From a virus (Duplodnaviria; Caudoviricetes): DNA of 61,962 nucleotides. The notes below the pieces were generated by a model that was not told the origin of the DNA, did not search any database, and was given only the letters and a program-made list of their open reading frames with translations. Within the stretch, counting starts at the first letter, position 1. The number at the start of each line of letters is the position of its first letter. Below are positions 1-48,799 of the stretch, piece after piece. The stretch is taken from the IMG/VR virus record IMGVR_UViG_3300016654_000115, positions 1 to 61,962 of that record; one strand, given 5' to 3'. The position numbers and the translations under genes are program-made.

Positions 1-22
1 GGACTTGCCCTACTGGTGTGAC
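1..22. repeat. Terminal overlap identical to 61941-61962 (circular assembly)
   Basis: GGACTTGCCCTACTGGTGTGAC occurs at both ends, and an ORF reads in frame across the join. Confidence 0.95.
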
Positions 23-1540: not shown

Positions 1541-1789
1541 ATGGATACCAAAATCAGATTGCTTTACGGCATCGACACGGCAATGCACCTACTGCGTCCG
1601 GGTGCCAAGTGGGAAATCTCCAACACCATGATTACCCGCTGGGATGACCCGCGCCCGTGTCCTACTTGGCAGGAATTGCAGGACACCATGGAGAAAATCA
1701 AAGCCTTTGAGGACTCCATCAATACCATCCTGCTGCCGCAGCAGATTGAACAAATCACCGGGTTCAACAAGATGCTTGAGGCCGCATGA
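1541..1789 (+). CDS. Small tail-fibre-associated protein (XkdW-like)
   Basis: A..LLRPGAKW...W.D.RP.PT motif directly after a fibre gene. Confidence 0.55.
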   Translation: MDTKIRLLYGIDTAMHLLRPGAKWEISNTMITRWDDPRPCPTWQELQDTMEKIKAFEDSINTILLPQQIEQITGFNKMLEAA

Positions 1790-2376
1790 GGATCGAGAGT
1801 CTCTTCCCCACGCCGGTTGCGTTCTGGAACCTTGTGTTGGACAAGGATGAGATTGATTTTGTCCGCAGTTTGGAGCAGCGCCCGAATACTGGAAACACGA
1901 CCAGCAAGAACAACTACGTCTTGCGTGAGCCGCAGATGCAGAGACTTGCCATGTTTGTCGGCACCTGTATTGATGAATACACCAAGGGCATCTACGCACC
2001 AAAACATCAGGTACAGGCATACGTTACCCAATCGTGGGTGAACTACACCAAGCCCGGACAGCATCATCACAAGCACGCACACCCCAATTCGTTTGTCTCT
2101 GGCTGTTTGTACATCGCCGCAAACGATGACCGGATTTATTTCTATCGTGATGGGTATCAGCAGATCAAGTTGCCAGCAGAGACGTACAACCTGTACAACT
2201 CTGAAAGCTGGTGGCTTAAGGTCAATCAGGGCGATGTGATTATGTTTCCATCCCACCTGACGCACATGGTAGATCGGCTGGCCGACGGTAAAGACGAACG
2301 CATCAGCATATCGTTCAACACCTTCCTCAAGGGCACTGTCGGGAGTGCCGACGAATTAACTGAACTGGAGATTTAG
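1786..2376 (+). CDS. 2OG-Fe(II) oxygenase (TIGR02466-like)
   Basis: LFPTP start, SWVN, H.H (KHAHPNS), FPSHLTHMV and RISISFN motifs. Confidence 0.85.
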   Translation: MRIESLFPTPVAFWNLVLDKDEIDFVRSLEQRPNTGNTTSKNNYVLREPQMQRLAMFVGTCIDEYTKGIYAPKHQVQAYVTQSWVNYTKPGQHHHKHAHPNSFVSGCLYIAANDDRIYFYRDGYQQIKLPAETYNLYNSESWWLKVNQGDVIMFPSHLTHMVDRLADGKDERISISFNTFLKGTVGSADELTELEI

Positions 2377-13546: not shown

Positions 13547-15682
13547 ATGGCAACTTCAACTACAGCCCTTCCGCCGGGTTCGACCAACGTCTCGGGTCTT
13601 GCGCCTTGGGCTCAAGACTATATTACCGACTATCTTGGCAAATCCCAAGCTTTGTCGGGCATGGGTTATCAGGTCTACCAAGGGCCGCAGACGGCGGGCT
13701 TTGCCCCTCTTCAGCAGGCTGGCTTTCGGGGTATTGCAAATTTAGCTGTACCCCAAGCCTTGATGCAGGGCGGAGAATATTTAAATCAAATTGCTCAAAA
13801 CTTGGGCAATGTAGCCTATCAGCCGGTTGGTGTTTCTTTCACCGGGAAAGACATCCCAACCCGAGCCAACATGCCCTTAACCCAAGGTGCAGTGTCAAAA
13901 CTAGAGGGGACTCTTGGAGCCCCCATTGGGGCGGGGGAATATCTTCCTTGGGGTGGATTTGAGCAAAAAACCGCCGCAACCACCACAACCCCCATTTCCG
14001 AGCTAAACAATCTTTATCAACAATATTTTGGTAAAGCTGGTGACGCAGAAGGCATGGCTTACTGGCAAAATAAATTTGGCAAAGAAATAGATGCAAATGA
14101 GTTAAGTGAATTTATTAGGGCTGGTATTGGAGCTATCAAAAATACACCTGCTCCGGCTGTGACAACCCCCATCTCCGAGCTAAATAATTTGTACCAACAA
14201 TATTTTGGTAAAGCTGGCGACGCAGAGGGGATGGCCTATTGGCAAAATAAATTTGGCAAAGAAATAGATGAAAATGAACTAGACGAGTTTATTAAAGCGG
14301 GTATTGGAGCTTTAAAGGGGGGCACAACCACTACAGCCACTACAAAACCAATTTCTGAGCTAAATAATCTTTATCAAAAATACTTTGGTAAAGATGGTGA
14401 TGCGGAAGGAATGGCCTATTGGCAAAATAAATTTGGCGAAGAAATAGATCAAGATGAACTAGATCAGTTTATTTCAGCAGGTATTGGGGCTCTAAAGGGG
14501 GGCACAACCACCACGGGAACTGGTACAGGAACTGATACAGGAACCACTACAAAGACCGGGGTCAATAAAAATGTTACTGATTTGTATCAGCAATATCTTG
14601 GAAAAGACCCAGACTTAGAGGGCGGAAAATACTGGTCAGATCGCTTTGGATCAGAGGTAGACAATACCGAATTGCTGTCTTTTCTCCAGTCGGCCCAAAC
14701 TGTATTAGAGGGGCAGGGAAAAGAAGTTCCTAAATCTATCACAGATAAAATTGCGGAGTTGACAAGCGCCCCAGATAAAAGTGGTTTTAATACCGAAAGA
14801 GTTCGTCGTTATGCCGACGGCGGTGCGGTGTCGTCTGGAGTTACGACCAGCGGGGGGATAGGCTCTTTGGCTGGAAATACCGACCAATCAACCTATAAGC
14901 CAGCAATTTACACCAGCAATGCAAGTAATGTTCTTGGCGGGGTAAATGCCACAACGCCCCAAGCTTCGCAGCCGGTTAGTTCCTATGCAGAACAATACAT
15001 GAATCCTTATCTGCAAGCCTCTTTAACCCCTCAATATGAAGAGCTTCGTCGGCAATCTCAAATTAATTTGCAGCCAACTCTTTCTAAACTTGCGCAAGCA
15101 GGTGCATTTGGTGGCGGGAGACAAGCCATTATAGAATCCGAGGCCCAACGCAATCTTCTACAAGCCCAACAGAATTTACTTGGGCAAGGATATAAAACAG
15201 CCTTTGACGAAGCTCAACAACAATTTAATACTGAACAGCAGCGGGCAATCCAAGAGGCTCAATATGGCGCTGACTATGGATTACGCGCAGCACAGCAACA
15301 AACCCAAGCCGCACAGGCAATGGGGCAGTTGGGACAAGCGCAAAACCAAGCGCAGTTGGCAAACCTAAATCTTGCATTGACTGGGGGCGGCATCCAGAGA
15401 GATGTTGCACAACAGGGAACCACCGCAGATTACAACGAGTTTTTGAGGCAGGTTCAGTATCCATATCAACAGCTTCAGTTCCAGCGCGATATGCTTTCCG
15501 GTCTTCCGGTATCAACAATTCAGAACCAACCGGCCCAGTTGTCTGGTATTGCTTCTCTTATTAGCGTACTTGGGGGAACCAGTAATTTGGCAAATAGCCT
15601 TGCCAATCCCAACATCCAGAATCTTTTGAAGAATCTTGGACTTGGTAACATTTTCAGCTCTAGCGACTCCGGAACAAATTAA
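13547..15682 (+). CDS. Putative ejection/DNA-pilot protein with inserted DUF4214-like repeats
   Basis: YMNPY, GAFGG.RQ and Gln-rich coils; 3-4 LY..Y[FL]GK..D.EG..YW repeats. Confidence 0.65.
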   Translation: MATSTTALPPGSTNVSGLAPWAQDYITDYLGKSQALSGMGYQVYQGPQTAGFAPLQQAGFRGIANLAVPQALMQGGEYLNQIAQNLGNVAYQPVGVSFTGKDIPTRANMPLTQGAVSKLEGTLGAPIGAGEYLPWGGFEQKTAATTTTPISELNNLYQQYFGKAGDAEGMAYWQNKFGKEIDANELSEFIRAGIGAIKNTPAPAVTTPISELNNLYQQYFGKAGDAEGMAYWQNKFGKEIDENELDEFIKAGIGALKGGTTTTATTKPISELNNLYQKYFGKDGDAEGMAYWQNKFGEEIDQDELDQFISAGIGALKGGTTTTGTGTGTDTGTTTKTGVNKNVTDLYQQYLGKDPDLEGGKYWSDRFGSEVDNTELLSFLQSAQTVLEGQGKEVPKSITDKIAELTSAPDKSGFNTERVRRYADGGAVSSGVTTSGGIGSLAGNTDQSTYKPAIYTSNASNVLGGVNATTPQASQPVSSYAEQYMNPYLQASLTPQYEELRRQSQINLQPTLSKLAQAGAFGGGRQAIIESEAQRNLLQAQQNLLGQGYKTAFDEAQQQFNTEQQRAIQEAQYGADYGLRAAQQQTQAAQAMGQLGQAQNQAQLANLNLALTGGGIQRDVAQQGTTADYNEFLRQVQYPYQQLQFQRDMLSGLPVSTIQNQPAQLSGIASLISVLGGTSNLANSLANPNIQNLLKNLGLGNIFSSSDSGTN
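13985..14515 (+). repeat. Three imperfect in-frame tandem repeats of about 175 bp
   Basis: Units encode PISELNNLYQ.YFGK.GDAEGMAYWQNKFG.EID..EL..FI.AGIGA. Confidence 0.85.
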
Positions 15683-17278: not shown

Positions 17279-20200
17279 ATGGCAAAGTTCCGCGTCGAAA
17301 TGGTCGATGGTCGGGCTTATGAGGTTGAGGCCCCAGAGGGAACGCCACAGGAAACCTTGTTTGCCGCCATCCAAGAACGCTACCCCCTTGCGTTTAAATC
17401 TACTGAGGAGTTGGAGTCCGCTAAATCGGCCCCCTTCAGAGCAGCAGACATTGCCAAGTCCGCCAAAATGGGTTTGGCTGGTGGGGTTCAAAGCCTAACC
17501 GACATCTTTGGGGCGGGCAATGTTGCCTCCCAATATCTTCAAGAGGCTCAGCAGGAGGCCTTTAAAGGTCTATCTCCAGAGCGTATTGCAGAGATTGAGC
17601 GCCGGGAAGAACTCAAGAAGAGGGCGGAAGGCAAGGGTCTTGGGAGAGAGATTGGCGCATCTGTTGGCGCGTTTACCGAGGCCCCAGCACAAACCCTTGC
17701 GCAAGCACTTTTTTCCTCCGCCCCAATTATTGCCAGCGCAGCGATCCCCGGAGGTCAGGCGGCTGGCGCTGCCCGCCTTCTTGCTGCCGCTAGAGGGCCC
17801 ACAGCAGTTGGCGCTGCCATGGGTCTTGGTGGACAGAAGGGGCAGGACTACGAGACAGTTAAACGAGAACTGTTGTCTCAAGGGATTCCTGAGGAGGAGG
17901 CAGAGCAAAGAGCCCAAAAGGCAGCAGAATATTCCGCTCAAAACATTCTTCGCCAAGCCGGTGCCGCCGCCGCCGGGGCGGTTGAGGGCAGATTCGGTGT
18001 TGAGCCTGCGGTGGGTAGATTGCTGTCCCGCCGAACAATTGAGGGGGGTAAAACTCCGCCCACATGGAGCCAAGCTATTGGTCAGAGCGTGCTTGGTGAG
18101 GCAGCGCCCGAGGCCCTACAGGCTGCGGTTGGAACCATAGGAACTAACCAAGCCCTTGATCAGGCTGGAATACCAACAGAGCTATCCAGAGGACTTGCCG
18201 GTACTGTCGCCCATGATGCTTTGGTTGGCGCGGTTCTGGGGCTGGGCCTTTCTCCGGCCCAGAAGGCAAACCTTTCGAGGGATTATGAGGCCGACCGGGC
18301 GGCTGAGAGAAAGAAGTTTGAGGATGAGGAGCGGGCAAAGATTGAGGAGATTGCCCGAAAGCAACAGGAAGAATATGAGAGGAAGGGCTACCAAGAGGTA
18401 CGGAAGGCCTTCGCCCCACAAGATTTAACAAAGAACCCGCTGGGAACATTCAAGGCTCAAGACCTGTCTCCTGCGGTGGTGGAGTATCTTGACAACTTCC
18501 GGGCCCAGTCTGGACTTCCAAAACTCAAGGAATACAGCATCGAAGATATAGCCGATGCGATGCCCGGAAGGGAGCCCGCCAAGGAGAAAGAGGCACTGGC
18601 TCAGTTTGTCGGAGAGAGGGCTGGCTATACACCCGATTCACAGGTCACCGTTCAGACGGTGCTGGATGAGGCCCTGCGTAAAAATATTGATATTGACGCA
18701 AGAAGTTTTACGGATTTCCTTGGAAGAGCAACAGGTGTAAACGATATTCGGGAGATGATGCCGCAGCAGTTGTTTGCTGCATACAAGAGTCTTTCCGCCC
18801 TCCCGGAGTCACCCACCATCCGAGAGATCGAGGGCGGGACTAATGCAACCCGCTTCGACCAAGCCCAGTATGAATCTGCTTTAAACGGGATTGATGCCCT
18901 GCTGGCAGAACTAGGCCGACCCGCCTCTCTCCCCGCCGTCAATGAGGAGATTAAACGAACAACTGGGTTAAAGAGCGGTAAAGCCATTCAAAGTCTTTTG
19001 GATGAGGCTATCCGGCGCGGCGATCTTGATGAGGTTCAAACGCCCCGCTACCGAACCATCGTTCCGGAAACGGGTGAGATTGTTGGGGCTATCTATGACA
19101 CCCGCGAGGAGGCAGAAAAGGCCGCTCCAAAGGGGGCGGAGGTACAGGAGGTCACCCAGCGTGCGATCTCGTCTCCTAGCGCCACCGCGAGGCTTCCGGA
19201 GGGCTATGACATCAGGGAGGGACTGCTCCAAACTGGCGAGGCACCCCAAGCCTATGACGTAATGGCGGGCGATCAGATTCTGAATCGGGTCAAGAGCGAG
19301 GAGGAGGCCCAGACCAAGCTGGAGTCTTACGCCAAGACAAGGGCGGCAGAGACAGAAAACGCCCGGAAGGTCATCGATAAACAGAATGCCCGCCTTACCA
19401 AGAGCCAAGAGAATTTAAACCTGATGCAGGTCGAGGGGCGGGGTAGGACCAATGTGTATCAGCAGGCGATAGCCAAACATCAAAAGCTGACCGACGAGGT
19501 CAACCAGATTATCGCCAAGCAGAACGAAAGAATCAGGAAGTTTGACCCAGATACCACCCCCCTCTCTATCGCGCCCGTTGGCGCGAAGGCTGTTGGGAAG
19601 ACCGGATTTACCGTCCTTAAAGATGGCGCTCCGGTGGCAACCTTCCCCACCCGAGAAAAGGCAGAGTCATCCATTCTGGAGGGACTGCCTACAAGCAGGC
19701 TTGAGGAACTGACCCGTGAAAAGGTCCGCCGGGGCATTGGGCCGAAGGCCCAGAAGGAACTGGAGCGCAGGGCGGGCAAAGAGAAACCAGAACAGGTCAC
19801 AAAGCTGGAGGCAGACCTCCGCAAGGTACTAAACAAGTTTGGTTTAAAGGATGTATCTCTTGAGGTTGCAGAGGCAATTGATGGTGGTAAAGCTGGTGGT
19901 TCTTATTTAAACAGTCTTATCAAGGTTGCGCTGGATGAGGCTAACCCGGTCAGAACCCTCCGCCATGAATCTCTCCATGCCCTCCGCGATCTGGGATTCT
20001 TTACCGACCAGCAGTGGAAGGCCTTAACCAATCAGGCCAAGTCCAAGTGGATCGACACCTACCTCAAACAAAAGAACATTGATGGTCAGCCCCTGAGGGC
20101 GGGAGAAACCTCCCGCTATGAGGCCTATGTCTCCGCCTACATGGGGGATATGGATTCAATCATTGAGGAGGCGGTGGCGGATGCCTTTGCTGATTTTGAT

Positions 20201-23200
20201 GCAAACAAGGCCCCGCCGGGGATGATCGCCGCCATCCTGAAGAAACTCAATGATTTCTTCACCGCCCTTCGTAATGCTTTAAACGGTGCTGGATATCAGA
20301 CCGCAGAGGATGTATTTGGAAAAATTGAGAGGGCGGAGTTGACCCCATCCGCAAAAGCTCAAGGTAGAATGCAAGAACGCCTAGCAAGGCGAGGAGAAAG
20401 ATATGCAACCACTGAACCTAAACAACCTTCCGTTCGACCCAGCCTTAGAGGCGGCGAAGGAAAGCAAGAAGAGGGAGCAGGAGGTCGAGACAGAGGAAGA
20501 CGGTTTACGGGCAGAGGCCTTGCGCCGCTTGCAGGTGCGCCGATTATTCAGGGAGCAACCGGGCCAGACCCGAGACTAGTTGCTGTTGCGCAACAGTATG
20601 CCGAGAAAATTGGCATACCCTTCCGCCGTCAGGCGGAATATGTAGAAGTAGATGAGAGCCGCGCAAGGCGGATCGCTCAAGCGTATGAGGATATGCCTCA
20701 TGCGCCTCAAGACCCAGAGGTCAAAGAAGCATATGCAGACCTGATCCAACAGACCAAGGATCAGTACGATGCCCTTGTAGATGCTGGCTATGAATTTACA
20801 TTCTTTGACAGCAATACTGACCCCTATGATGGCAACCCGTTTAACGCCATGCGCGATCTCCGCAATAACAAGCGGATGGCTGTTTACGGAACATATGATG
20901 GATACGGTACAGATGGAATAACTGGTGCCGCCGTCGAAGACAACCCCATGTTGGCTGACACCGGATTGCGTTGGCCGGACCAGAACGGGGTTGAGCATAT
21001 GGTCACCGCCAATGACTTGTTCCGCGCCGTGCATGATGCATTTGGTCACGGGCTGGAGGGCGCTGGCTTCCGGGCCCGTGGCGAAGAAAACGCATGGCAG
21101 GCACATGCCAAACTGTTTACAGGCCCGGCAGTTGGGGCAATCACGTCCGAGACTCGCGGTCAGAACAGTTGGCTGAACTACGGCCCGTATGGGGAAAAGA
21201 ACCGTACCGCCAAATTGCAAGATACCGTATTTGCCGAACAGAAGACCGGCCTAATGCCCGAGTGGACATGGACCGAGGGCATGGTTGCTGAGGAGCCGAC
21301 GGGCATCGTCTTGGGTCAAAAGCAAACCGGAGCATCTTCTTTTAACGGAACCCACTACGGAACCTCTCGGGTTGATAGCCTTTCTGGCGCAAAGTACGGC
21401 ACAGGCATTCGCGGGGCAGAGCGCCGCCGCCTTGAAGCCACGGACGACGAACGAATCAAAAGGCGTGTTTACTTCTACATCCCCAAGCCGGATGGCACCA
21501 TGCCAATTCCAGAGGCCGGTTTGGGGCAGTATGTTTACACGCAAAGTTTTGACAACATTCTTGGCCCCGGCGCTGAAATGAGTAGGCTGTTTAGCGAGGC
21601 GCGGGGAGATGCCAACACATTTGAGAGTTTGGTTGTCGATGCCGGATACGACGGTTATGCAGCGCCCAACATGGGCATGATGGTTGTCTTGAACAACGAT
21701 GTACCCGTCGATTACAAAGGTACAGCAGCCCAACAAAGAGAAAAACTAAGCCTTAGAAGCGATATTTTTGCCAAACGATTGAACTCCATTGGAGTTAAGT
21801 CAACAGATGATTTCTGGAAATTATGGCAAAACATAATGATTGGAACCGCAGGTCCGCGCCCCGGTCTTTCTGGCGTATTGGATGAAAGACCCCGCCAAGA
21901 ACAAATTAAAGATGCCGTAGCGGTGTGGAAAAAAGATGTTGAACAATATGGAATGCGCAGGTATTTGTACGGTTACTTGAATACTGCCGATGATGAGATA
22001 GTAAAAGCAAAAGTTGCCAGAGAGATACTAGAACTAGCGCAAATCAAGCCAACAGTACAAAATGCAATTTGGGCTTATAACTCTTTGCCGGGGCACGTAA
22101 TTTCTGCAAATGATGCGGCAGTCATTAGATCATTGCCAGACGATTTTGATCAAAAGGCAATTTTCAAAGACAAAGAATTTCCGCGCAAACCAAAAACTGG
22201 AACTGACTGGCTTACGGGTAAAGAACTCATAGAGCCAGAAGCAGAAAATGAGCCAAAGTTCAGTCTACGCATTATGAGGGGAGAGATTACCCCCAAGTTT
22301 GATGGCAAGGTGACGGTCGATAAGATTGGCAAATATTTTGATGACCAAATTTTTGCTGAGTTTGGTAGAAAACTCGATTACAACAACCCCCAAGATTTTG
22401 ATCGTGCTATTAGGGTGGCAAACGAAGAGGTTGCATATCAATTAACTCAGGAAAAATCCGGCCTTGATTGGTATGAGGAAGACATCAAAAAGGCGTTTAA
22501 AGACACAATCAAGATCATCCCAGAACTCAAGAAGGAACAAAACCGTATTCTATTTAGCATTATGGCTGGCATTATGTCGCCCCAAACTAACGCCAGAGAC
22601 AACTGGTTTATTGCTGCAAAGGCTTTCCAGCATTATTTAAACACTGGAGTCATACCCGGTGTAAATCCAGAAACAGGCGGACTGTGGCAGGGTGGGACAA
22701 CTTCTGTAAACAAGAAAGTCCAATTGGAGTTTCTAAACAGATTGGTTGCTCAGGTTGGGCAAAGAAAAGCCGTTGATTGGGCAATGGACGACCACACCGT
22801 CGCAGAAATCAATGATTACCGTTCTGAATATGGAAAGTTAAAGACCGGCATCGACGGCAAGTTGGGCGACATCAAGCCGGGGCTTTATGCATTTGGCCCG
22901 AAGGTTGGCCCATTCGTCTCCAACATCAATGGTATTCACGATGTCACGGTAGACATGTGGATGACCAGAACATTTAATAGGTACTTCGGTACAATGATTG
23001 GCCCCGATGGCAAGATCATTGATGCACCGACAGAGCCTCAACGCAGAGCCATCAAAGAGTTTGTCAACAAGGTAGCACAAGATGCAAACATCAAACCGTA
23101 TCAAGCCCAATCGGTCCTCTGGTTCTATGAGCAAAGCCTCTACAGGAAGCTCGGGAGCCCGGCCCCCTCTCATGGATTCAGCGACGGAGCGGCCAAGTTC

Positions 23201-26200
23201 GTCTCTGAGTCAGGAGGAGGAGGCGGTAAGGAGGGTGTGCCAGTTGCTGCTAAGAAGGCTCAGAGAAAGCGATTAAGCCTCCGAGCCCCCCAAACACCTG
23301 AATTTAAACGGTGGTTTGGCAGGTCTAAGGTGGTTGATGAGGGCGGCGAACCAAAAATCATGTATCACGGCACTGCCGGGGACTTCGAGGCGTTCCGACC
23401 CGGTAAGGCAGATGCCATTTTTGTTTCTCCCAACGCCAAATTTGTGGAAAGTTTTGGTGGATACGGAGAGGACGAACTAATTGAGCAAATTGCAAAGCAA
23501 TTTGATCAACAGCCGGAGCGCAAACGCAGCCTTCTGATTCCGTTGATTGATGATGCAATTGCTGATAAACGCCTTGCCACCGACAAAAATTCAAACGGGT
23601 TATATGGCACAACCCGCGAGGAATTGATTGATCGCTTTATGGATAGCGATCTTAGTAATTTGATGGGAAGCGTTGGCATTGGCAGTCAGTTGCGTGATGC
23701 ATTGGAAAATGAATTGCCAAGTCGGGCAAACATTATTCCTGTATATGTTAAATCAGATAATCCATTTGACTACGAAAACACAAAGCATGTAAATCAAGTT
23801 GCGCGTCTTGTTCAAAACAATGTTGGCGTTGGCACGATGTTCCTTGCTGATGGATCGCGGTTAAAAACCAAAGACCTTTCGCAGTTACTGAAGGAGGGCT
23901 CTTGGCGGGCGATTGAAAGCGAAGATGTTCAAGATGCCATCCGTTCGCTTGGTTTTGATGCTTTCCATATCAAAGAAGGCACAATTAAAAATTTAGCCGT
24001 CTACAACCCCAACCAACTTAAGTCGGTGTTTAATCAACGTCCGACTGAGCGGCCTGAGATGAGATTTAATCTTAGAGCCAATATTGATCCATCTCTGATG
24101 GCAATGGTTGATCGGGTAACTCCAGAGAGGATTGAGAAGACTTGGGTACAAAGCATCACTGAAGCGATTGCCCCGAAGTCCTACAGCCACTTCCGTCAAC
24201 AGGCTTTAAACAGATATAACCGGCTGGGTGAGGCTGAGGTGTTTAGATCCCAGAAGATGGGTGGCCCCATCCGGATGGCGGAGGACAATGCAGAATCTGC
24301 CGCGCTGATGTCTGATAATGCTGCCGGGGTCGCTGCATCTGCTCTGGGGGTTCATGACAGGGCGGGGGGTGCTCCTGTTTACCGCAACGGTGTAACCAGC
24401 GTCTGGAACGATAACGGAAACATCAAGGGCCCGGTGGCGATCTTCGCCCCCCTTGCCAAATACAACAACCCCGATATCTATCGGCTCTACCAGTTCTGGG
24501 CAGGCTCTACCCGAGCGCGACGCCTATTGGATCAAGGGAAAGAGCGTTTATACACAGCGGCAGAGATTACCCGCGCCAAGGAACTGCTCCAGCAGTTCCC
24601 CGAGTTTGAGCAAATCCAGAAGGAATGGATTAAGTACAACAATGCTCTGGTGGACTACGGCGTTGCCACGGGCGTTCTAACGCCCGAGAAGGCTGCGGAG
24701 TTCAAGAAGTATTCCGACTACATCCCCTTCTACCGACAGTTGGATGGGGAGAGGACCGCCGGGCCAAAAATTTTCCAATCCATATCTGGAGTTAAGCCAC
24801 CCAAGAAAATAAAGGGCGGGGAGCAGCCTCTGGATGACCTGATTGAGACTGTCGTTAGGAATACTCAGTCGATGATTGAGGCTGGCATGAAGAATGTGGC
24901 GGCACAGAAGGCCGTCAATTTGGCGGCGGACATTGGTCTTGCCACCCGCCTGCCCTCTAAACAAACGCGGGAGGATGTTGTTACCGTCCTTGAGAGGGGG
25001 GTTGAGGTTAGCTACGAGGTGGCTGATCGACTCTTCATCGATGCGGTTAAATCTTTAAACCTTCCAGACCTTCCGTTTATTGGTCTCCTTTCCGGCCCCG
25101 CAAATCTTCTCCGTAACTTGGTGACCAAAGACCCCGGCTTCATGTTGGCAAACATGATGAGGGACTCAATGGCAGCTTGGGTGACCTCCGGTGTAAAGAT
25201 GGTACCGGTAACCTCTACGGTCATCAATTTTGGCAAAGCGATTGCCGGGCGAGACCCGGTTTTCCTAGCCCTTTTAAACGCTGGAATTATTGGTGGATAT
25301 GAGTTCTCCCAGAACGTCAAAGCCGGTGCGGCTGAGATGGAGAAGGCGATGAACAAGGTCGCCGGGGTCAGGCCCAAGGGTGCAGCAGCAGCCCTCAAGC
25401 CCTTCACATCCCTCTGGGATGCTTTAGAGAGGGGAACGACCGCATCCGACGCCGCAACCCGGATGGAGGTCTACAAACAAACAATGGCTGAAACCGGGAA
25501 CGAGGCGGAGGCTCTCTTCCGCGCCCTTGAGGTGATGAACTTCAACCGTAAAGGTTCTTCTCCCGTCATAAGAATTCTTACGGCAGCCATCCCATTTTTA
25601 AACGCAAGGATGCAGGGCTTAGACGTTCTCTACCGGGCGTCCTTCGGGAGGATGGTCAACAAGGACGCAGCAACAATTCAGAAGGCATTCTTTGTGCGGG
25701 GCATGACTATCGCCGCCCTATCTTGTATGTATTGGGCGCTGACCCATGATGATGATGAATACAAGAAGCAGGAGGAGGAAACCAAGGACAACAACTGGCT
25801 CATTCCCTCCTTGGGCATCAAGATTCCAATCCCCTTCGAGGTTGGTGTTTTGTTTAAAGTGGTGCCAGAAAGGATCATGGCCTACGCCTTCGGAACCGAC
25901 ACAGGGAAGGACTTCCTTGATTCGATGAGTCGGCAGTTGGTTTCAACCTTGGTGATAAACCCAATCCCTCAGGCCGCCCTCCCCGTGGTTGAGGCGGTGA
26001 CCAATTATTCTTTCTTTACCCAGCGGGAGATCATTGGTCAGGGTTTAAAGGATGTTGAACCCAAGTTTCAAGTTGGACCCAGCACATCTTTGGTATCTCA
26101 AACCATAGGGGAGTCATTGGGCATCTCCCCAATGAAACTGGATCACATCATCAAGGGCTACACCGGAACGATGGGCATGTACATGATAGACATGCTAGAT

Positions 26201-26608
26201 GCTGTTATGGATTTAAACAGCGATAGCCCGAGAGCAACAAAAAGGTTTGAGCAGTTGCCTGTGATTAAACGCTTTGCTGTTGACCCGGAGGCAAGGGGAA
26301 ATGTCACCGCCTACTACGACCTGAAGAACTCTGTTGACACGGCGGTCAGAACATCAAATCTTCTTGAGAGAACTCAGAACCTAGATAACTACGGGCCATA
26401 CCGGGAATCTGTCATGGGAATGCTGGCTACCCGAGATTATGTTTTGAACCTTGAGAAGACCATGAAAGAGTTGCGGGAGATAAAGATTCTTATCCGGTCC
26501 TCCGACATGTCGGGAGATGATAAGAGAGATGCCTTGCTTGAGATCAACAGGAGGGAGGACCAGTTGGTCGAGAACATCAGGGAGATCAGGAACTTCGCAC
26601 GCCCATGA
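17279..26608 (+). CDS. Giant polyvalent (probably injected) protein: zincin peptidase, HDxxGH domain, two ART-like domains, HhH-glycosylase-like domain, LPD38
   Basis: HESLH (aa 896), FRAVHDAFGH/GEENAW, YHGT...PVY...NP...GFD...NQLKS, VTVDMW, NFNRKG...IPFLNA...IPIPFEVG. Confidence 0.75.
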   Translation: MAKFRVEMVDGRAYEVEAPEGTPQETLFAAIQERYPLAFKSTEELESAKSAPFRAADIAKSAKMGLAGGVQSLTDIFGAGNVASQYLQEAQQEAFKGLSPERIAEIERREELKKRAEGKGLGREIGASVGAFTEAPAQTLAQALFSSAPIIASAAIPGGQAAGAARLLAAARGPTAVGAAMGLGGQKGQDYETVKRELLSQGIPEEEAEQRAQKAAEYSAQNILRQAGAAAAGAVEGRFGVEPAVGRLLSRRTIEGGKTPPTWSQAIGQSVLGEAAPEALQAAVGTIGTNQALDQAGIPTELSRGLAGTVAHDALVGAVLGLGLSPAQKANLSRDYEADRAAERKKFEDEERAKIEEIARKQQEEYERKGYQEVRKAFAPQDLTKNPLGTFKAQDLSPAVVEYLDNFRAQSGLPKLKEYSIEDIADAMPGREPAKEKEALAQFVGERAGYTPDSQVTVQTVLDEALRKNIDIDARSFTDFLGRATGVNDIREMMPQQLFAAYKSLSALPESPTIREIEGGTNATRFDQAQYESALNGIDALLAELGRPASLPAVNEEIKRTTGLKSGKAIQSLLDEAIRRGDLDEVQTPRYRTIVPETGEIVGAIYDTREEAEKAAPKGAEVQEVTQRAISSPSATARLPEGYDIREGLLQTGEAPQAYDVMAGDQILNRVKSEEEAQTKLESYAKTRAAETENARKVIDKQNARLTKSQENLNLMQVEGRGRTNVYQQAIAKHQKLTDEVNQIIAKQNERIRKFDPDTTPLSIAPVGAKAVGKTGFTVLKDGAPVATFPTREKAESSILEGLPTSRLEELTREKVRRGIGPKAQKELERRAGKEKPEQVTKLEADLRKVLNKFGLKDVSLEVAEAIDGGKAGGSYLNSLIKVALDEANPVRTLRHESLHALRDLGFFTDQQWKALTNQAKSKWIDTYLKQKNIDGQPLRAGETSRYEAYVSAYMGDMDSIIEEAVADAFADFDANKAPPGMIAAILKKLNDFFTALRNALNGAGYQTAEDVFGKIERAELTPSAKAQGRMQERLARRGERYATTEPKQPSVRPSLRGGEGKQEEGAGGRDRGRRFTGRGLAPLAGAPIIQGATGPDPRLVAVAQQYAEKIGIPFRRQAEYVEVDESRARRIAQAYEDMPHAPQDPEVKEAYADLIQQTKDQYDALVDAGYEFTFFDSNTDPYDGNPFNAMRDLRNNKRMAVYGTYDGYGTDGITGAAVEDNPMLADTGLRWPDQNGVEHMVTANDLFRAVHDAFGHGLEGAGFRARGEENAWQAHAKLFTGPAVGAITSETRGQNSWLNYGPYGEKNRTAKLQDTVFAEQKTGLMPEWTWTEGMVAEEPTGIVLGQKQTGASSFNGTHYGTSRVDSLSGAKYGTGIRGAERRRLEATDDERIKRRVYFYIPKPDGTMPIPEAGLGQYVYTQSFDNILGPGAEMSRLFSEARGDANTFESLVVDAGYDGYAAPNMGMMVVLNNDVPVDYKGTAAQQREKLSLRSDIFAKRLNSIGVKSTDDFWKLWQNIMIGTAGPRPGLSGVLDERPRQEQIKDAVAVWKKDVEQYGMRRYLYGYLNTADDEIVKAKVAREILELAQIKPTVQNAIWAYNSLPGHVISANDAAVIRSLPDDFDQKAIFKDKEFPRKPKTGTDWLTGKELIEPEAENEPKFSLRIMRGEITPKFDGKVTVDKIGKYFDDQIFAEFGRKLDYNNPQDFDRAIRVANEEVAYQLTQEKSGLDWYEEDIKKAFKDTIKIIPELKKEQNRILFSIMAGIMSPQTNARDNWFIAAKAFQHYLNTGVIPGVNPETGGLWQGGTTSVNKKVQLEFLNRLVAQVGQRKAVDWAMDDHTVAEINDYRSEYGKLKTGIDGKLGDIKPGLYAFGPKVGPFVSNINGIHDVTVDMWMTRTFNRYFGTMIGPDGKIIDAPTEPQRRAIKEFVNKVAQDANIKPYQAQSVLWFYEQSLYRKLGSPAPSHGFSDGAAKFVSESGGGGGKEGVPVAAKKAQRKRLSLRAPQTPEFKRWFGRSKVVDEGGEPKIMYHGTAGDFEAFRPGKADAIFVSPNAKFVESFGGYGEDELIEQIAKQFDQQPERKRSLLIPLIDDAIADKRLATDKNSNGLYGTTREELIDRFMDSDLSNLMGSVGIGSQLRDALENELPSRANIIPVYVKSDNPFDYENTKHVNQVARLVQNNVGVGTMFLADGSRLKTKDLSQLLKEGSWRAIESEDVQDAIRSLGFDAFHIKEGTIKNLAVYNPNQLKSVFNQRPTERPEMRFNLRANIDPSLMAMVDRVTPERIEKTWVQSITEAIAPKSYSHFRQQALNRYNRLGEAEVFRSQKMGGPIRMAEDNAESAALMSDNAAGVAASALGVHDRAGGAPVYRNGVTSVWNDNGNIKGPVAIFAPLAKYNNPDIYRLYQFWAGSTRARRLLDQGKERLYTAAEITRAKELLQQFPEFEQIQKEWIKYNNALVDYGVATGVLTPEKAAEFKKYSDYIPFYRQLDGERTAGPKIFQSISGVKPPKKIKGGEQPLDDLIETVVRNTQSMIEAGMKNVAAQKAVNLAADIGLATRLPSKQTREDVVTVLERGVEVSYEVADRLFIDAVKSLNLPDLPFIGLLSGPANLLRNLVTKDPGFMLANMMRDSMAAWVTSGVKMVPVTSTVINFGKAIAGRDPVFLALLNAGIIGGYEFSQNVKAGAAEMEKAMNKVAGVRPKGAAAALKPFTSLWDALERGTTASDAATRMEVYKQTMAETGNEAEALFRALEVMNFNRKGSSPVIRILTAAIPFLNARMQGLDVLYRASFGRMVNKDAATIQKAFFVRGMTIAALSCMYWALTHDDDEYKKQEEETKDNNWLIPSLGIKIPIPFEVGVLFKVVPERIMAYAFGTDTGKDFLDSMSRQLVSTLVINPIPQAALPVVEAVTNYSFFTQREIIGQGLKDVEPKFQVGPSTSLVSQTIGESLGISPMKLDHIIKGYTGTMGMYMIDMLDAVMDLNSDSPRATKRFEQLPVIKRFAVDPEARGNVTAYYDLKNSVDTAVRTSNLLERTQNLDNYGPYRESVMGMLATRDYVLNLEKTMKELREIKILIRSSDMSGDDKRDALLEINRREDQLVENIREIRNFARP
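20403..20579 (+). CDS. Possible nested 58-aa ORF in the +1 frame of the giant gene
   Basis: AGGAG 6 nt before the ATG; spans a low-complexity linker of the host frame. Confidence 0.35.
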   Translation: MQPLNLNNLPFDPALEAAKESKKREQEVETEEDGLRAEALRRLQVRRLFREQPGQTRD

Positions 26609-38445: not shown

Positions 38446-38694
38446 TTAAATCTCCGTTGCTTTTGCGATAGCGGCCAGTGCCTCGGCCTCGATGGTTTTT
38501 GCCCAATGACCCTTATCCATCAGGGCAATGTTTGCAATGGTTTGCAGCGCGGCCAGCATGTCAGGCGCGGCAGCGAACAGCAGTGCCTGCTGCCTGCGCA
38601 GGGTCATCGGTCGGTGCGACCCGACGACACGGGCGACCTCGACCTCCCCTTGCGGGGAGTGCTGCCATACCGTTGTGTTTTTCGCGTACATCAT
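38446..38694 (-). CDS. Hypothetical protein (AAAPD.L.AL family)
   Basis: A.L.AAAPDMLAAL...AAIAKAT. Confidence 0.65.
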   Translation of the reverse strand: MMYAKNTTVWQHSPQGEVEVARVVGSHRPMTLRRQQALLFAAAPDMLAALQTIANIALMDKGHWAKTIEAEALAAIAKATEI

Positions 38695-40358
38695 GCTGCC
38701 ACCTTAATCTGCGAGAGTGCGGCACTGGCAAGGTCGGCAGGGTCCACCACCTTGATGGCATTTGTGTACCAGACATCGGCCTGATTCCTCTCGCCGATGC
38801 CGATGGCTATTGTCGTAATGCCCAGCGCAGCACCGGCCTTGCACTGCGCACGAACCGCTGCGCCCTTGCCATCGCCATCCGTCAGAACAAACACAACCTT
38901 GCGCTGCTCCGGGCGCGTATAGATGCGCTCATGGGCAAGGCGCAGCGCCACCGAGTCGTTAGTGTCGCCCTCGTTATCTACGCACCGCACCGCATGCTTG
39001 ATGCGAGCGGCAGGGGTTCCAAACGGGCACAACACCGACGCCACAACACCGAATGTCACCACCTCGACCTGCACCCCTGCTGCGCTCAGTGAGTCGATCA
39101 GCGCATCACATGCCTGCACTGCTGCACCGATGAGTGCAGGCTGCGTAGCGCCATTGATGTTGCGCTCGACAAACATGCTGCTGCTCACGTCCAGCACAAC
39201 CGTCACCGCAGAGTCGATACCCTCAGGCTCATCATGACGTTTAAATACCCGATCACTGCCTGCTGCAACACGCGGCAGCACCGCGCTATTGATTGACCCA
39301 GCGCGTCGGTTGACTTCATACCCGCTGCGGTCGGTGTGCTCAAACATGCGGCGCACCTCACTGCGCAGGCGAGCAGGCGCATGGACAGGCGGCGCAGGCA
39401 CTGTGACTTTGTTTGTCAAATGGTGCCCATCCTTTGCAATCACCTCGTCGCGGGTAAATGAGCCACCCGGGGAGGGTTTGCCATCCATGCGCGGCTCGAC
39501 CTCACGTGCGGGTTGATGCTCGTGCGCCACCGGACGCGCATCGGGCGCGTCAGGCGCGTTTTTCCCGTCGCCTGCACCCTCACCCTCACCCTCGCCCTGA
39601 TCGCCGCCCTCAGGCCCATCTGATGCGTCTGAGTGGGCATCCTGATTGCCTGCGTCATCGCCTGCGTCATCGCCTTCCTGCTGCTGGTCATCGGGTTGCT
39701 GGTTGTCGGGTTGCTGGTTGTCGGGTTGCTGCACCTGCTGCAATTGTTTAAATACCCAATCGGCAATTGCCAGCGTGTCGCTGCTGCTGGTGCAACCAGA
39801 CAGGCGGCGATGCGCCTCGTCAAAGATCGGGCGCAGGCCACGCGCCAGCGGCACCTTGCGGGTTGCGTGATCCCGCAGATAGATCGCCAGCGCGAACGGG
39901 TATTGCGCCGTGTCCGACCAGTCGCTCACCTCCGCTAGTGCCTCGCCCACGATTGAATCCACCAGCGCGGACAGCAGGCCAGCGGCGTTGCCAACCAGAC
40001 CATCGCGGATGCACCGGCCCTCGATCCACGCATCCTCGACTGCGTTGTGCAGTGCCTGCACGTATTGCCCATTACCGCGCACCGAAAAGGTCGTGTACTT
40101 GCGGTGCAGCAGTTCGTGCAAAACAAACCCTGCATACCGTGCCACGGTGGCGCGGCCAATCACCGCATCGTCGGCCACGTTCGCCAGCACCATGTTGCCG
40201 CAGGCATTGATGGCGGCAGTGCTGATGCCTGCCCACTGGATCGTGACACGCGGCAGGCCCAGCGCAGCGCAAAGACGATGCGCGAATGCCTCGATTCCCG
40301 GGCGCAGTTCGATACCGCGAATGTTTGCGCGGCGCAGCAGTGTTTCGATGTTGCTCAT
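38691..40358 (-). CDS. CobT-like protein: HExxH domain, acidic linker, vWA domain
   Basis: LHELLH...NAVED, MIDAS DVSSSM, T, LTDG. Confidence 0.85.
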   Translation of the reverse strand: MSNIETLLRRANIRGIELRPGIEAFAHRLCAALGLPRVTIQWAGISTAAINACGNMVLANVADDAVIGRATVARYAGFVLHELLHRKYTTFSVRGNGQYVQALHNAVEDAWIEGRCIRDGLVGNAAGLLSALVDSIVGEALAEVSDWSDTAQYPFALAIYLRDHATRKVPLARGLRPIFDEAHRRLSGCTSSSDTLAIADWVFKQLQQVQQPDNQQPDNQQPDDQQQEGDDAGDDAGNQDAHSDASDGPEGGDQGEGEGEGAGDGKNAPDAPDARPVAHEHQPAREVEPRMDGKPSPGGSFTRDEVIAKDGHHLTNKVTVPAPPVHAPARLRSEVRRMFEHTDRSGYEVNRRAGSINSAVLPRVAAGSDRVFKRHDEPEGIDSAVTVVLDVSSSMFVERNINGATQPALIGAAVQACDALIDSLSAAGVQVEVVTFGVVASVLCPFGTPAARIKHAVRCVDNEGDTNDSVALRLAHERIYTRPEQRKVVFVLTDGDGKGAAVRAQCKAGAALGITTIAIGIGERNQADVWYTNAIKVVDPADLASAALSQIKVAA

Positions 40359-40360
40359 GT

Positions 40361-41818
40361 TTAAACCCCTTTGATGTTGGATTCGATCAGGCCCGGGTTG
40401 ATATTGGCAGCGTAGACTGCCTCCAGTGCGACCAGACCCTCGGCAGGTTGTTTGCTGGCAATGGTGGTTGCCCACGCATCCGCGACCGTGTGCCATGAGC
40501 AGGCGCGGATGAATGCCATCGCCTGCCGCAGGGAGGGTGCATCAACCAGCGCACCCGTTGCCAGTTGCTGGCGGCAGACATTGATCGCGGCCACAACATG
40601 CAGCGCCAGTGCGCGGGTGCATCCAGTGTGTTTAACCAGTGCATCGGCCTCGACGTCAGCAGGCAGGAAAGCAAAGGGGATCGTCCGGGCAAACCGGTCC
40701 AGCAGCGCGGCATTCATTTGCCGCACCCCAGCGTACCGGCCAGATGCATCGCCGCTGCCCAGCGTATTGTCGGCAGCGAAAACCATCACCCCAGCGGCGC
40801 GGCGATAAACCTTGCCGTGGATCGTCACCGCTGCCCCGGGTTCCAACAAACCATTCAGCATCGCCAGTTCACCGGCATCGCAATTGGAAACCTCGTCCAG
40901 CAGAATCACGGACCCGGGCGCAGTGAACGCGCGGAGAAAAGGACCCTCGACAAATTGAGTCGCGCCATTTACTAGACCGACCGCGCCGATATATTCTTCG
41001 ACCGTCGTGTATTTATGGAAGTTGATGCGGGTAAATGCGCGGCCTGTACGGGCGGCAAATTGCATAATGGTTTGCGTTTTGCCGGTACCCTTTTCACCAC
41101 CGAGCCAGATATTCTCCCCGGTATATTGCGACTGCACTAAATGCCGCACAATATCGGACCGCCAGATAAACGTGTTATCTACCGGTGGCGCATCATTATG
41201 GTTATAAATATCCAGCATAATGTTTGCGGACAATCCGGTAGTAATTCCGAAAACATTATCGGGATGATCCTGCCCAGCAGGCGCAGCAGCAGCAACAGCC
41301 ACAACCGCATCCTGCGCACCGGCATCAATCACTGCCTGTTTAAATGGACCAAATGCCTGCTCGACTGCCTGTGCGATCAGCACAGCAGCGGCACCAGTGT
41401 CAACCCTCGCAGCATCTACCTTGCCTTGCAAAGCAGACAGTGATGCATCTATTTTGTCTAAGGCGGCACCGTGCGCCAAGGATGCAGCATGCGCCTTGTT
41501 TGCGATATGCGCAGCACTGTCCAACGATTGCCGCTGAGTGCTGACAACCCTTGTAAGGTTGTCCACCGTGGTTTGCAGGTCCTTGACGTCCTGCGTCCGA
41601 ACAGCATCAACGACAACCTGATGCGCCGTCGGCGCAGCAGCAGGCGTGGCAGCAGCGCCAGCAATACGCTGCACGGTGGTGGTGCCGTTGTCAACCAGCA
41701 CCGCTAGTCGGCGGCACATGTCCAACTTATCGCCAGACATGACACTGTGCGCCTGCGCTGCGGTTTTGATCCGCGCCAGCGGCAGGCCCATGAGGGTTTT
41801 TTCGATTTGAGTGAGCAT
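40361..41818 (-). CDS. MoxR/CobS-like AAA+ ATPase
   Basis: GEKGTGKT, ILLDE, AADNT.G.G....Y.G....NAALLDRF, SLR. Confidence 0.88.
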   Translation of the reverse strand: MLTQIEKTLMGLPLARIKTAAQAHSVMSGDKLDMCRRLAVLVDNGTTTVQRIAGAAATPAAAPTAHQVVVDAVRTQDVKDLQTTVDNLTRVVSTQRQSLDSAAHIANKAHAASLAHGAALDKIDASLSALQGKVDAARVDTGAAAVLIAQAVEQAFGPFKQAVIDAGAQDAVVAVAAAAPAGQDHPDNVFGITTGLSANIMLDIYNHNDAPPVDNTFIWRSDIVRHLVQSQYTGENIWLGGEKGTGKTQTIMQFAARTGRAFTRINFHKYTTVEEYIGAVGLVNGATQFVEGPFLRAFTAPGSVILLDEVSNCDAGELAMLNGLLEPGAAVTIHGKVYRRAAGVMVFAADNTLGSGDASGRYAGVRQMNAALLDRFARTIPFAFLPADVEADALVKHTGCTRALALHVVAAINVCRQQLATGALVDAPSLRQAMAFIRACSWHTVADAWATTIASKQPAEGLVALEAVYAANINPGLIESNIKGV

Positions 41819-41828
41819 GGTTGTCCCC

Positions 41829-42410
41829 TCAAACAAGGTTGATCGTGTCGCCACAGACACACGTCGGCATGCCTTTGCTGGCCCACAGTGCCGACAGGCG
41901 AATGGTGTACCCGCACGATGGGCACAGCCCTTTGAGCAGTCGGGTGGCCTGCGTCTTGCGGGTGGTGGCCTGCAATGCAGCATGCGGGTAATCGCCCAGC
42001 CCCGAGATAATGGCCGAATACATGCCATCGAAAGCAGGTCCGGCACTGGTCGCCTTGTAGCCCCGGGTTGCGCTGGGCACGAGGCCCATCGCGTCAGCGA
42101 TAGCAGCGAATGCCTTACCGTGATTCATTGCACCGGCGCATGTATGCGCCACCTCATGCACCAGCACTGCCATCACATCCCGGGAATTGTCGAGAGTGGG
42201 CGCGACCAAAATCTCGTTGGTCTTGTCCGCGCTGGCAGTGTCAACCCAGCACTCGCCGAGTGCCTTGGACCTCTTCCAACTCGAAGGAAACCCGCAGGCA
42301 ACCCTGATACGGGCAGAGCAGGGGGCAGGCGCGTAGGCCTGAAAGATTGGGCGCAACTCCTCGACGGCGGCGGTCAGCCACTCCTCGCGTGTTGCATAGA
42401 TGATTGACAT
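41829..42410 (-). CDS. SprT-like zinc metalloprotease
   Basis: TREEWL, LGECW, LVHEVAH, HG..F, C-terminal CPSCGY..R...P.C.CG. Confidence 0.75.
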   Translation of the reverse strand: MSIIYATREEWLTAAVEELRPIFQAYAPAPCSARIRVACGFPSSWKRSKALGECWVDTASADKTNEILVAPTLDNSRDVMAVLVHEVAHTCAGAMNHGKAFAAIADAMGLVPSATRGYKATSAGPAFDGMYSAIISGLGDYPHAALQATTRKTQATRLLKGLCPSCGYTIRLSALWASKGMPTCVCGDTINLV

Positions 42411-48205: not shown

Positions 48206-48405
48206 ACGAAGATGCTCGATTGTTAATTATTGTTTTGAATCAAATAAAAGAGAGAGAGTCAATACTCTCTGAAAGACTTGTATTGGGGGGCGCAAAAGAT
48301 TTCCCCGAATATCGAGAATTGTGCGGCAACATTCAGGGTCTGTTGTTTGCTCAATCCATAATCCAAGACCTTGTACGTAAACTGGAGCAAATTGACAATG
48401 ACTGA
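48202..48405 (+). CDS. Conserved small head-region protein
   Basis: L..G...D..EYR..CG.I.GL. Confidence 0.65.
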   Translation: MNEDARLLIIVLNQIKERESILSERLVLGGAKDFPEYRELCGNIQGLLFAQSIIQDLVRKLEQIDND

Positions 48406-48799
48406 ACTTCTAGTGAGTCAGGACGGAAAAACAACCACCTCACTGCCTACGTCGGCGGAAGAAAAGGCAAAACAATTGCCCGATCCTGCCACGTACCATC
48501 TTCTGTGCGTCCTGCCAGAGGCGGAGGAGGAATATGAAAGCGGTTTGGTAAAGGCCGGGCAAACTCTTCATTATGAGGAGGTTCTTTCGCCAGTTTTGTT
48601 TGTGGTGAAGGTCGGCCCGGATGCCTACAAAGACGAGAAAAGATTTCCATCTGGCCCGTCTTGCAAGGTTGGGGATTTTGTGTTGGTTAGACCCAACACA
48701 GGAACCCGCATAAAAATTCATGGCAAAGAGTTCCGCATTATCAATGATGATAGTGTGGAGGCCGTGGTTGAAGACCCCCGTGGCGTTTCCCGGGCCTAA
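48398..48799 (+). CDS. GroES-like co-chaperonin
   Basis: P....LL, SGL, V.KVGP, CKVGD.V, G..I...G.E.RIINDD.V.AVV. Confidence 0.8.
   Translation: MTELLVSQDGKTTTSLPTSAEEKAKQLPDPATYHLLCVLPEAEEEYESGLVKAGQTLHYEEVLSPVLFVVKVGPDAYKDEKRFPSGPSCKVGDFVLVRPNTGTRIKIHGKEFRIINDDSVEAVVEDPRGVSRA

Follow-up and report, generated by a model that had tools for sequence, protein, structure and literature searches.

A short peptide tag marks the cassette junctions of a clade of giant phage polyvalent proteins with a putative zincin

We analysed the 61,962-nucleotide record IMGVR_UViG_3300016654_000115 of IMG/VR at its full length (the window), focusing on one gene, P0001 (positions 17279..26608, plus strand), which encodes a giant polyvalent or ejection-type protein of 3109 amino acids (aa) without an internal stop. 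The protein consists of an N-terminal scaffold (N1 and N2), a putative zincin (ZN), a row of cassettes that we call D, E, F, G and H, and a C-terminal scaffold (I1 and the LPD38 region). Judged from sequence, the short motif [KR]-x-[SN]-LR that recurs between these parts is a selected, linker-borne junction signal, or tag, of one large polyvalent-protein clade. The conserved zincin that accompanies the tag would be its most economical reader, and the reading that we favour, with slightly less than even confidence, is that P0001 encodes a self-processing effector polyprotein whose putative zincin cuts it at the tags.

The tag and the cassette junctions

The open reading frame (ORF), its single HESLH at aa 896 and five [KR]-x-[SN]-LR motifs had been described in a first-pass annotation, and each was borne out at its position. 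All five tags lie on the plus strand. Tag 1 (RPSLR; aa 1053-1057, nt 20435..20449) marks the ZN|D junction and a homology breakpoint, in a tail (aa 1038-1060) with a predicted local distance difference test (pLDDT) score below 50. Tag 2 (KLSLR; aa 1489-1493, nt 21743..21757) marks the E|F junction, also a homology breakpoint. Tag 3 (KFSLR; aa 1660-1664, nt 22256..22270) lies at the F|G junction in coil with pLDDT <50; its S and L are invariant columns of one alignment of relatives (A4), and 63 high-scoring segment pairs from local alignments against relatives start at aa 1650-1664. At the G|H junction, tag 4 (RLSLR; aa 1998-2002, nt 23270..23284) closes a linker of pLDDT <50 (aa 1980-2000), five residues ahead of the ART-PolyVal start PEFKRWFG. 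Finally, tag 5 (RFNLR; aa 2262-2266, nt 24062..24076) lies at the H|I1 junction, again with pLDDT <50.

The giant protein holds no [SN]LR triplets other than those of the five tags. Shuffled versions of it contained the strict motif 0.19 times on average, and five copies were reached in 0 of 2000 shuffles. Other plausible genes of the window were free of the motif, its nine other six-frame matches falling in stop-to-stop frames of 12-219 aa outside assigned genes; the tag is therefore not a general site of a head (head-maturation) protease. Internal translation starts at the tags were ruled out as a candidate, with an ATG just upstream at one of the five sites and no Shine-Dalgarno-like run by eye.

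Two AlphaFold2 models were built, one of aa 620-1060 on an alignment of 27 sequences (mean pLDDT 80.4) and one of aa 1080-2279 on 25 sequences (mean pLDDT 71.0). Tags 1, 3, 4 and 5 were predicted to lie in disordered linker or coil (pLDDT <50) beside confident domains. The concern that the motifs might fall inside folded domains was thus answered by predicted linkers for four of the five tags, but not for tag 2, which was placed in a predicted helix.

For comparison, a search with aa 1000-2300 returned 1409 proteins of 1709-5441 aa, of which the best 120 were analysed. These relatives are akin to one another and were picked by similarity, so that counts among them describe one clade rather than independent events. 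Besides the strict motif, [KR]-x-[SN]-LR, we scored a relaxed tag, [KR][FYLWMIV]S[LIVM][RKP], and a four-residue core, [KR]xS[LIVM], which is expected about four times per protein and so is informative at junction windows only. Nearly all relatives have one scaffold in common (N1, N2 and ZN, then I1 and LPD38), and the cassettes between ZN and I1 (D+E, F, G, H and others) vary in order and number; one relative (P0003) reads ZN-G-D-E-F-H vs. ZN-D-E-F-G-H in the window. The strict motif occurred on average 2.24 times per relative, and the relaxed tag 3.15 times vs. 0.21 in shuffles.

When the window protein was locally aligned with 119 relatives, the alignment ends, taken as homology breakpoints, clustered at all five tags. 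An additional breakpoint without a tag fell on the D|E boundary (aa 1350/1351, nt ~21328). Where two cassettes adjoin, the core lay within 25 aa of the junction in 273 of 295 cases, and the relaxed five-residue form in 177 of 295; the comparison of cassette content among homologues thus found the tag present at junctions, not absent from them. The exception was the D|E boundary, where the core occurred in 14 of 66 cases only. Because of this low count and a gap of three residues, we treat D+E as one unit. The tag was also confined to the cargo region: of the relaxed copies in 101 proteins that have both ZN and I1, 334 lay between the end of the zincin and the start of I1 (44% of the length) and 2 lay outside.

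The tag was kept whatever cassettes flanked it. Flank clusters, 20 upstream and 20 downstream, were paired in 42 combinations around the 267 strict copies, and ahead of I1 alone at least eight unrelated tails finished in a tag. At the H|I1 junction, 45 of 91 distinct contexts had the strict tag, and most others read [KR][YF]S[LIV] followed by P or K. Among 292 distinct [SN]LR contexts, K or R stood at position −2 in 220 and Y, L or F at −1 in 168; conservation was limited to the 4-5 tag residues, and the remaining flanks, rich in Gly, Ala, Glu and Pro, were not conserved. P0090, whose ZN was the most divergent of those examined, has [KR]xS[VI]A[PK] in place of SLR at seven sites, a concerted change over its junctions that may reflect peptide-level selection or gene conversion. 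With the breakpoints on all five tags and the cassette order shuffled, the view of the motifs as cassette junctions was upheld.

We next consider the level at which the tag is conserved. Codons differ between the window copies (Leu CTT, CTA or CTC; Arg AGA, CGC or CGA). Codons and scaffolds were compared using sixteen loci; in nine genes with DNA, tag Ser was encoded by AGY 21 times and by TCN 8 times, with both families within one gene in three of the nine, and tag Leu and tag Arg each used five codons. Because tag codons differ between copies, selection acts on the tag peptide and not on the DNA. A role of the motifs in cassette swapping at the DNA level, which had been offered as an alternative to cleavage, found no support in these codons.

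The putative zincin and its link to the tag

ZN (aa ~875-1037, nt 19901..20389, plus strand) contains the sole HExxH of the giant protein, HESLH (nt 19964-19978), and a downstream pair, Glu963/Glu964 (nt 20165-20170). H896, E897, H900, E963 and E964 were invariant in 58 of 58 aligned sequences and in 27 of 27 of another alignment. In the model, whose pLDDT is 86-97 over most of the domain, the HExxH and the downstream Glu both lie on predicted helices (model residues 277-285 and 339-357), and an HExxH with a downstream Glu on a second helix, the predicted third zinc ligand, fits the definition of a zincin-like metallopeptidase quoted in Iyer et al. (2017). A language-model look-up gave leads only, to LPD23, LPD1/LPD5 and MuF_C. 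Aligned by hhalign with the other zincin type described below, ZN matched across 147 columns in which the HExxH motifs and the Glu helices coincided, at a probability of only 10%. A predicted complex of the zincin (aa 855-1039) with Zn and the linker at aa 1978-2012 scored 0.26 vs. a mark of 0.32, without controls, and counts neither way.

A profile of ZN matched 2703 cluster representatives (E ≤ 0.001). Among the best 150 of these, 139 were new, and they carried the relaxed tag 1.66 times on average vs. 0.24 in shuffles. The best match to the profile (P0122, 4460 aa) has four zincin-like stretches, with HExxH at aa 950, 1618, 3129 and 3827. Tag-like C-terminal tails also occur in this family: one protein of 473 aa (P0149) ends in DVRKSLR just past its zincin, and the C-termini of P0178, P0147, P0162 and P0180 read [EIS][VI]RKS[LM][KR]x. 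Among the relatives of the window protein, a second HExxH cassette, itself bounded by tags, lies between the ADP-ribosyltransferase (ART) and I1 in P0005 (aa 1924), P0010 (aa 1994), P0014 (aa 2115), P0024 (aa 1963) and others.

The same cassettes are also found on other scaffolds, T7-gp16-like or other giants that lack LPD38 and carry a different zincin (FLHExxHFFL or VIHEMGHFFLE), and at those junctions there was no tag. These comprise P0068, P0077, P0084 and P0102, the phages ctQRb9, OctBD1 and Limnohabitans phage DC33, and loci L015, L017, L019, L021 and L022; tag counts over their whole proteins were at chance level. Although cassette D of ctQRb9 matches that of the window at 68% identity, on a par with values inside the tagged clade, no tag flanks it. 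The relaxed tag was likewise absent from LPD38 proteins without HExxH (those of phages PTXU04, Vibrio 1.232.O, Achromobacter CF418P1 and Bacillus Pascal), and no tag was found in Planktothrix phage Pag-Yong1, which joins I1-LPD38 to other zincins. Relatives that have ZN but no detectable N1 or N2 kept their tags. Thus, since proteins with ZN keep the tag when N1 and N2 are gone and LPD38 proteins without ZN have none, among the scaffold parts it is ZN that the tag follows.

Among the giants with the VIHEMGHFFLE zincin, a GGKLS[LM]PI[LM]KE element in the ORFs of L015, L017, L019, L021 and L022 lies at about aa 1965 or 1205, and in P0068 it lies at aa 2098. The first junction past ZN reads K[LF]SLP[IV] in a subclade of the ZN clade. 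This KLS[LM]PI element may be an old cis site at the C-terminal border of the protease, or part of a zincin-associated structure rather than a cut site.

Cassettes, scaffold and genome

With ART-PolyVal, LPD38, an HhH-GPD-like fold and an HExxH domain, the giant protein fits the description of a polyvalent protein by Iyer et al. (2017). All its parts lie on the plus strand. N1 (aa 1-350, nt 17279..18328) is Ala/Gly-rich, with one transmembrane-like stretch at aa 306-324 in a hydropathy scan, and is kept from residue 1 onward in many relatives. Part of N2 (aa 643-790, nt 19205..19648) was modelled, with pLDDT mostly >90, as two small beta units and a long alpha-helical hairpin; Foldseek gave weak rows only, to the periplasmic adaptors MacA, EmrA, MexA, AcrA and ZneB (E 0.47-1.1), and the VIA rows were generic helical hairpins. 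This predicted structure may suit a trans-periplasmic conduit, or it may be just a generic hairpin.

Cassette D (aa ~1095-1350, nt 20561..21328), noted earlier as an FRAVHDAFGH domain, held up as a confidently modelled unit but gained no family, its only match being PHROG 3170, of unknown function. It matches part of the 433-aa gp106 of Mycobacterium phage Spud, where it occurs alone, and Mycobacterium phages made up 199 of the 215 matching phage records. Cassette E (aa 1351-1488, nt 21329..21742) is an alpha/beta unit that travels with D across the 3-aa gap; in Limnohabitans phage DC33, the giant protein has E but not D. The first-pass annotation had called it ART-like, which we did not confirm: there was no Pfam match or fold row, and hhalign against cassette H gave a probability of 8.9% over 25 columns around G[YF]DG[YF]. 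Cassette F (aa 1494-1659, nt 21758..22255), with few aligned relatives and pLDDT 27-49, is present in a minority of relatives. None of D, E and F had a match in the fold comparison.

Cassette G (aa 1665-1997, nt 22271..23269) has an HhH-GPD-like fold of the DUF7178 type. With VIA it matched the queuine salvage enzyme QNG1/DUF2419 at Z 9.4 (root-mean-square deviation 4.1-4.2, 213-215 residues aligned) and OGG (8-oxoG), AGOG, EndoIII, MutY, MagIII and AlkA at Z 5-9, values that are moderate; the Pfam match to DUF7178 (26.4 bits) fell just below the cut-off of 27 bits. The earlier label of an HhH-glycosylase-like domain is therefore backed at the level of fold. Cassette H (aa 2003-2261, nt 23285..24061) is an ADP-ribosyltransferase of the ART-PolyVal family (Pfam PF18760, E 2.2e-15; match at aa 2148-2256), scoring 41.8 bits in the whole protein and 58.1 bits as a segment against a cut-off of 31.2. 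Its ART fold, matched to tankyrase/PARP (Z about 7), MbcT (6.6) and chain B of the cyanophage A4 pre-ejectosome (8.3), agrees with the second ART-like domain of the annotation. All 50 fold rows listed were of the HhH-GPD fold or ART.

The C-terminal scaffold, I1 (aa 2267-2800) and the LPD38 region, spans nt 24077..26605 and matches PHROGs 9854 and 18222. The LPD38-type end that had been proposed is secure, with PF18857 matching aa 2825-2995 at 122.6 bits (cut-off 27, E 2.7e-35). Homologous C-terminal ends occur in phages PTXU04, Vibrio 1.232.O, Achromobacter CF418P1 and Bacillus Pascal.

The ends of the window (1-22 and 61941-61962) share an exact 22-base direct repeat, and on this account the window is a phage genome of about 61.9 kb (61.94 kb) that was assembled as a circle and is probably complete. 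Contigs of relatives measure 61-64 kb. Going by where relatives came from, freshwater Betaproteobacteria such as Limnohabitans may be guessed as hosts. The gene content includes terminase, portal, an HK97-type capsid protein, two SU10-type adaptors, tail-fibre genes and a replication and recombination block. Other virion genes and a gene at 13547-15682, which matches the PHROG 'DNA ejection protein', directly precede the giant ORF, and a place right after such a match is the usual position of podophage internal virion proteins. From this context among virion genes, the giant protein is probably packed into the phage head and injected. A Pfam scan (E ≤ 0.001) of 34 other window ORFs turned up no protease family.

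Elsewhere in the window lie a CobT/vWA-like and AAA pair (porphyrin/cobaltochelatase-type PHROG; 38691-42046, minus strand), a Cpn10/GroES-like gene directly after portal (48371-48799, plus strand), a 2OG-Fe(II) oxygenase among the tail-fibre genes (1786-2376, plus strand) and the two SU10-adaptor paralogues (56238-57170 and 58038-58733, plus strand). A metagenome contig of 4246 bases (L011) encodes cassettes F, G and H with 100% aa identity to the window and with the same codons in tags 3 and 4; given this identity, it is the same phage assembled in another data set.

Cleavage at the tag, its alternatives and known systems

How might such a protein work? We think it possible, at somewhat less than an even chance, that an uncultured clade of double-stranded DNA (dsDNA) podophages makes a true polyprotein of plug-and-play anti-host enzymes, each bounded by a tag of 4-5 residues that is read by the zincin. 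The scaffold would be the N-terminal part, the zincin and the C-terminal I1-LPD38, and the variable cargo D+E, F, the HhH-GPD-like unit and the ADP-ribosyltransferase. Each cassette boundary would be a flexible linker with a tag [KR]-x-S-[LIVM]-[R/K/P], in the window form [KR]-x-[SN]-L-R, and the protein's own zincin (HESLH...EE) would recognise this tag. The cuts, made in the capsid or once the protein has been injected, would yield an N-terminal piece (~aa 1-1052), cargo of about 431, 166, 333 and 259 aa, and a C-terminal LPD38 piece. Thermolysin-type zincins prefer a hydrophobic residue at S1'. By analogy, the likeliest scissile bond would be Ser|Leu or the bond before Tyr, Phe or Leu; in the latter case, and this is pure speculation, the cut could expose residues that act as bacterial N-degrons and time the life of the effector. 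Any cassette placed between two tags would then be released on delivery, and tag and protease would co-evolve, whence other tags would be expected in other polyvalent lineages, such as the SVAP of P0090.

The evidence that the zincin cuts at the tags is circumstantial: the two co-occur, the tag is absent on other scaffolds, the presumed catalytic residues do not vary, and the window ORFs scanned yielded no other protease family. A number of observations weigh against it. In the window protein, tag 2 differs from the other four in being predicted within a helix (aa 1483-1503, pLDDT 63-73), AlphaFold2 did not place tag 1 near the active site, and Pro at +2 in many copies narrows where a cut could fall. 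The identification of ZN as a predicted zincin comes only from the invariance of its motif: ZN had no match in Pfam (E ≤ 1), PDB sequences or fold searches (at E ≤ 0.001 Foldseek had no PDB hit, and helical-hairpin matches took up the lists of both Foldseek and VIA), a profile of the whole protein likewise gave no meaningful match among PDB sequences, and the stretch upstream of HExxH, where a beta-sheet is expected, has a pLDDT of about 50. The link between tag and zincin could also reflect shared ancestry, since all tag-bearing proteins belong to one scaffold clade, and the untagged control proteins represent few lineages. Within the zincin-selected set, 43 of the 139 representatives lacked the relaxed tag; by eye, many of these have variants such as DIRKSLR or DIRKSIGG, but P0122, with its four zincin-like stretches, has neither the relaxed tag nor a variant. 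The other-zincin clade keeps a single tag-like GGKLS[LM]PI[LM]KE ~240 aa after its HExxH. No cultured phage of the tagged clade emerged from the phage collection searched. Furthermore, such zincins occur in N4 vRNAP, ArdC and TraC1, all of which are delivered without being cut, according to passages of Iyer et al. (2017; PMC5512222), and in a preprint, as far as its passages go, the metallopeptidase of the LPD38 protein gp47 of phi24B is assigned to cell-wall degradation (bioRxiv 10.64898/2026.04.10.717836).

Some of these points suit an alternative in which the tag is never cut but serves as a docking, hinge or threading signal that packs the cargo in the capsid or feeds it through the portal and tail channel, the chain staying whole. 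A binding tag would account equally well for peptide-level conservation, the linker location and the confinement to the cargo region, the uncut zincin-bearing proteins noted in passages of Iyer et al. (PMC5512222) set a precedent, and a protein that ends right at a tag-like tail, as P0149 does at DVRKSLR, is odd for a cut site. However, the zincin is the only candidate reader that tracks the tag, I1/LPD38 scaffolds being untagged where this zincin is missing, and a motif of 4-5 residues that recurs at each junction of a string of enzymes, next to a conserved protease active site, resembles the sites of polyproteins; we therefore regard an uncut tag as unlikely.

It is less likely still, and in our view rather improbable, that the tags are cut by another protease, either a host enzyme of the envelope or cytoplasm acting after injection or an unrecognised phage one, with the zincin attacking the cell wall or host proteins instead. 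The peptidoglycan degradation proposed for the gp47 metallopeptidase in passages of the phi24B preprint (bioRxiv 10.64898/2026.04.10.717836) and the effector roles listed for such zincins in those of Iyer et al. (PMC5512222) point this way, and a basic-hydrophobic-Ser-aliphatic pattern could suit many proteases. Against it stand the lack of a protease family among the 34 other window ORFs and of the tag in any other plausible window gene, and the same cassettes are untagged where this zincin type is missing, which a host-protease site would not predict unless the hosts differ. As for the breakpoints on the tags and the shuffled cassette order, these could also mean that the tags are recombination scars, microhomologies or linker copied along with cassettes, with no function in the protein. 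This we consider very improbable: the copies show synonymous differences, with Ser AGY and TCN both within single genes, homologous exchange needs more than fifteen degenerate bases, conservation covers the 4-5 tag residues but not the linker around them, and the same cassettes lack the tag on other scaffolds.

Self-processing at the tags would have parallels in known systems. MARTX toxins are cut between their effector domains by an internal cysteine protease domain that is activated by inositol hexakisphosphate. The likeness lies in a single chain with swappable effectors and its own protease, cut in unstructured linkers at a short, weakly specific site. In contrast to the putative zinc protease of a phage particle considered here, MARTX has a cysteine protease, a different motif and no homology, and is a secreted bacterial toxin. 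In phages of the T4 and phiKZ/SPN3US types, many head proteins, the capsid protein among them, are processed by a separate prohead protease. There too, capsid-packed, ejected proteins are cut at short consensus sites; the window phage differs in that no separate protease family was found and the tag occurs in one gene only. DdrB of phage P1, a zincin-bearing head protein, is proteolytically processed before packaging (PMC5512222), but, as described in passages of that paper, this is a single processing event with no known site motif, and its assignment to a protease is a prediction.

That a polyvalent chain is processed into functional units by its zincin is a proposal of Iyer, Burroughs, Anand, de Souza and Aravind (2017, PMC5512222), as passages of that paper state. 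Their polyvalent proteins, like that of the window, are giants that combine ART-PolyVal, LPD38, an HExxH...E zincin and other enzymes. Their main text names no cleavage motif and contains no 'linker', 'boundar' or 'recognition site', whereas in the window clade a defined tag maps to the junctions and to one zincin clade; the putative window zincin matches no Pfam peptidase model. In the passages concerned, gp47 of phi24B, compared here by its description, is likewise a very large podophage protein ending in LPD38; it was found in virions by proteomics and is proposed to be an ejection protein (bioRxiv 10.64898/2026.04.10.717836). PTXU04_00025, another large LPD38 podophage protein, is needed for efficient infection, according to passages of its preprint (bioRxiv 10.1101/2023.09.18.558157); its C-terminal part aligns with that of the window protein at about 28% identity, and it lacks both HExxH and the tag. 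Processing of gp47 or PTXU04_00025 goes unreported in the passages of the two preprints, and passages of the cyanophage A4 paper do not mention processing of ejection proteins. Among the literature matches listed, and in passages on polyvalent-protein cleavage and ejection-protein processing, we found no description of the tag; the papers listed for the tag sequences themselves were unrelated. What is new is thus the defined junction tag, and what was already known is the proposal of zincin processing.

Zincin processing of polyvalent proteins has been predicted since 2017 without a site, and a defined tag makes that prediction directly testable. The mapping of tags to junctions covers more than 100 relatives, the segments between tags formed 42 clusters, and the zincin family, with its 2703 cluster representatives, is large. 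If the tags are indeed cut, the polyprotein logic familiar from RNA viruses and MARTX toxins would extend to tailed dsDNA phages, and it would explain how a string of globular enzymes 3,000 residues long becomes fit to exit a capsid. The tag would also provide a rule for delimiting unknown effector cassettes in metagenomes.

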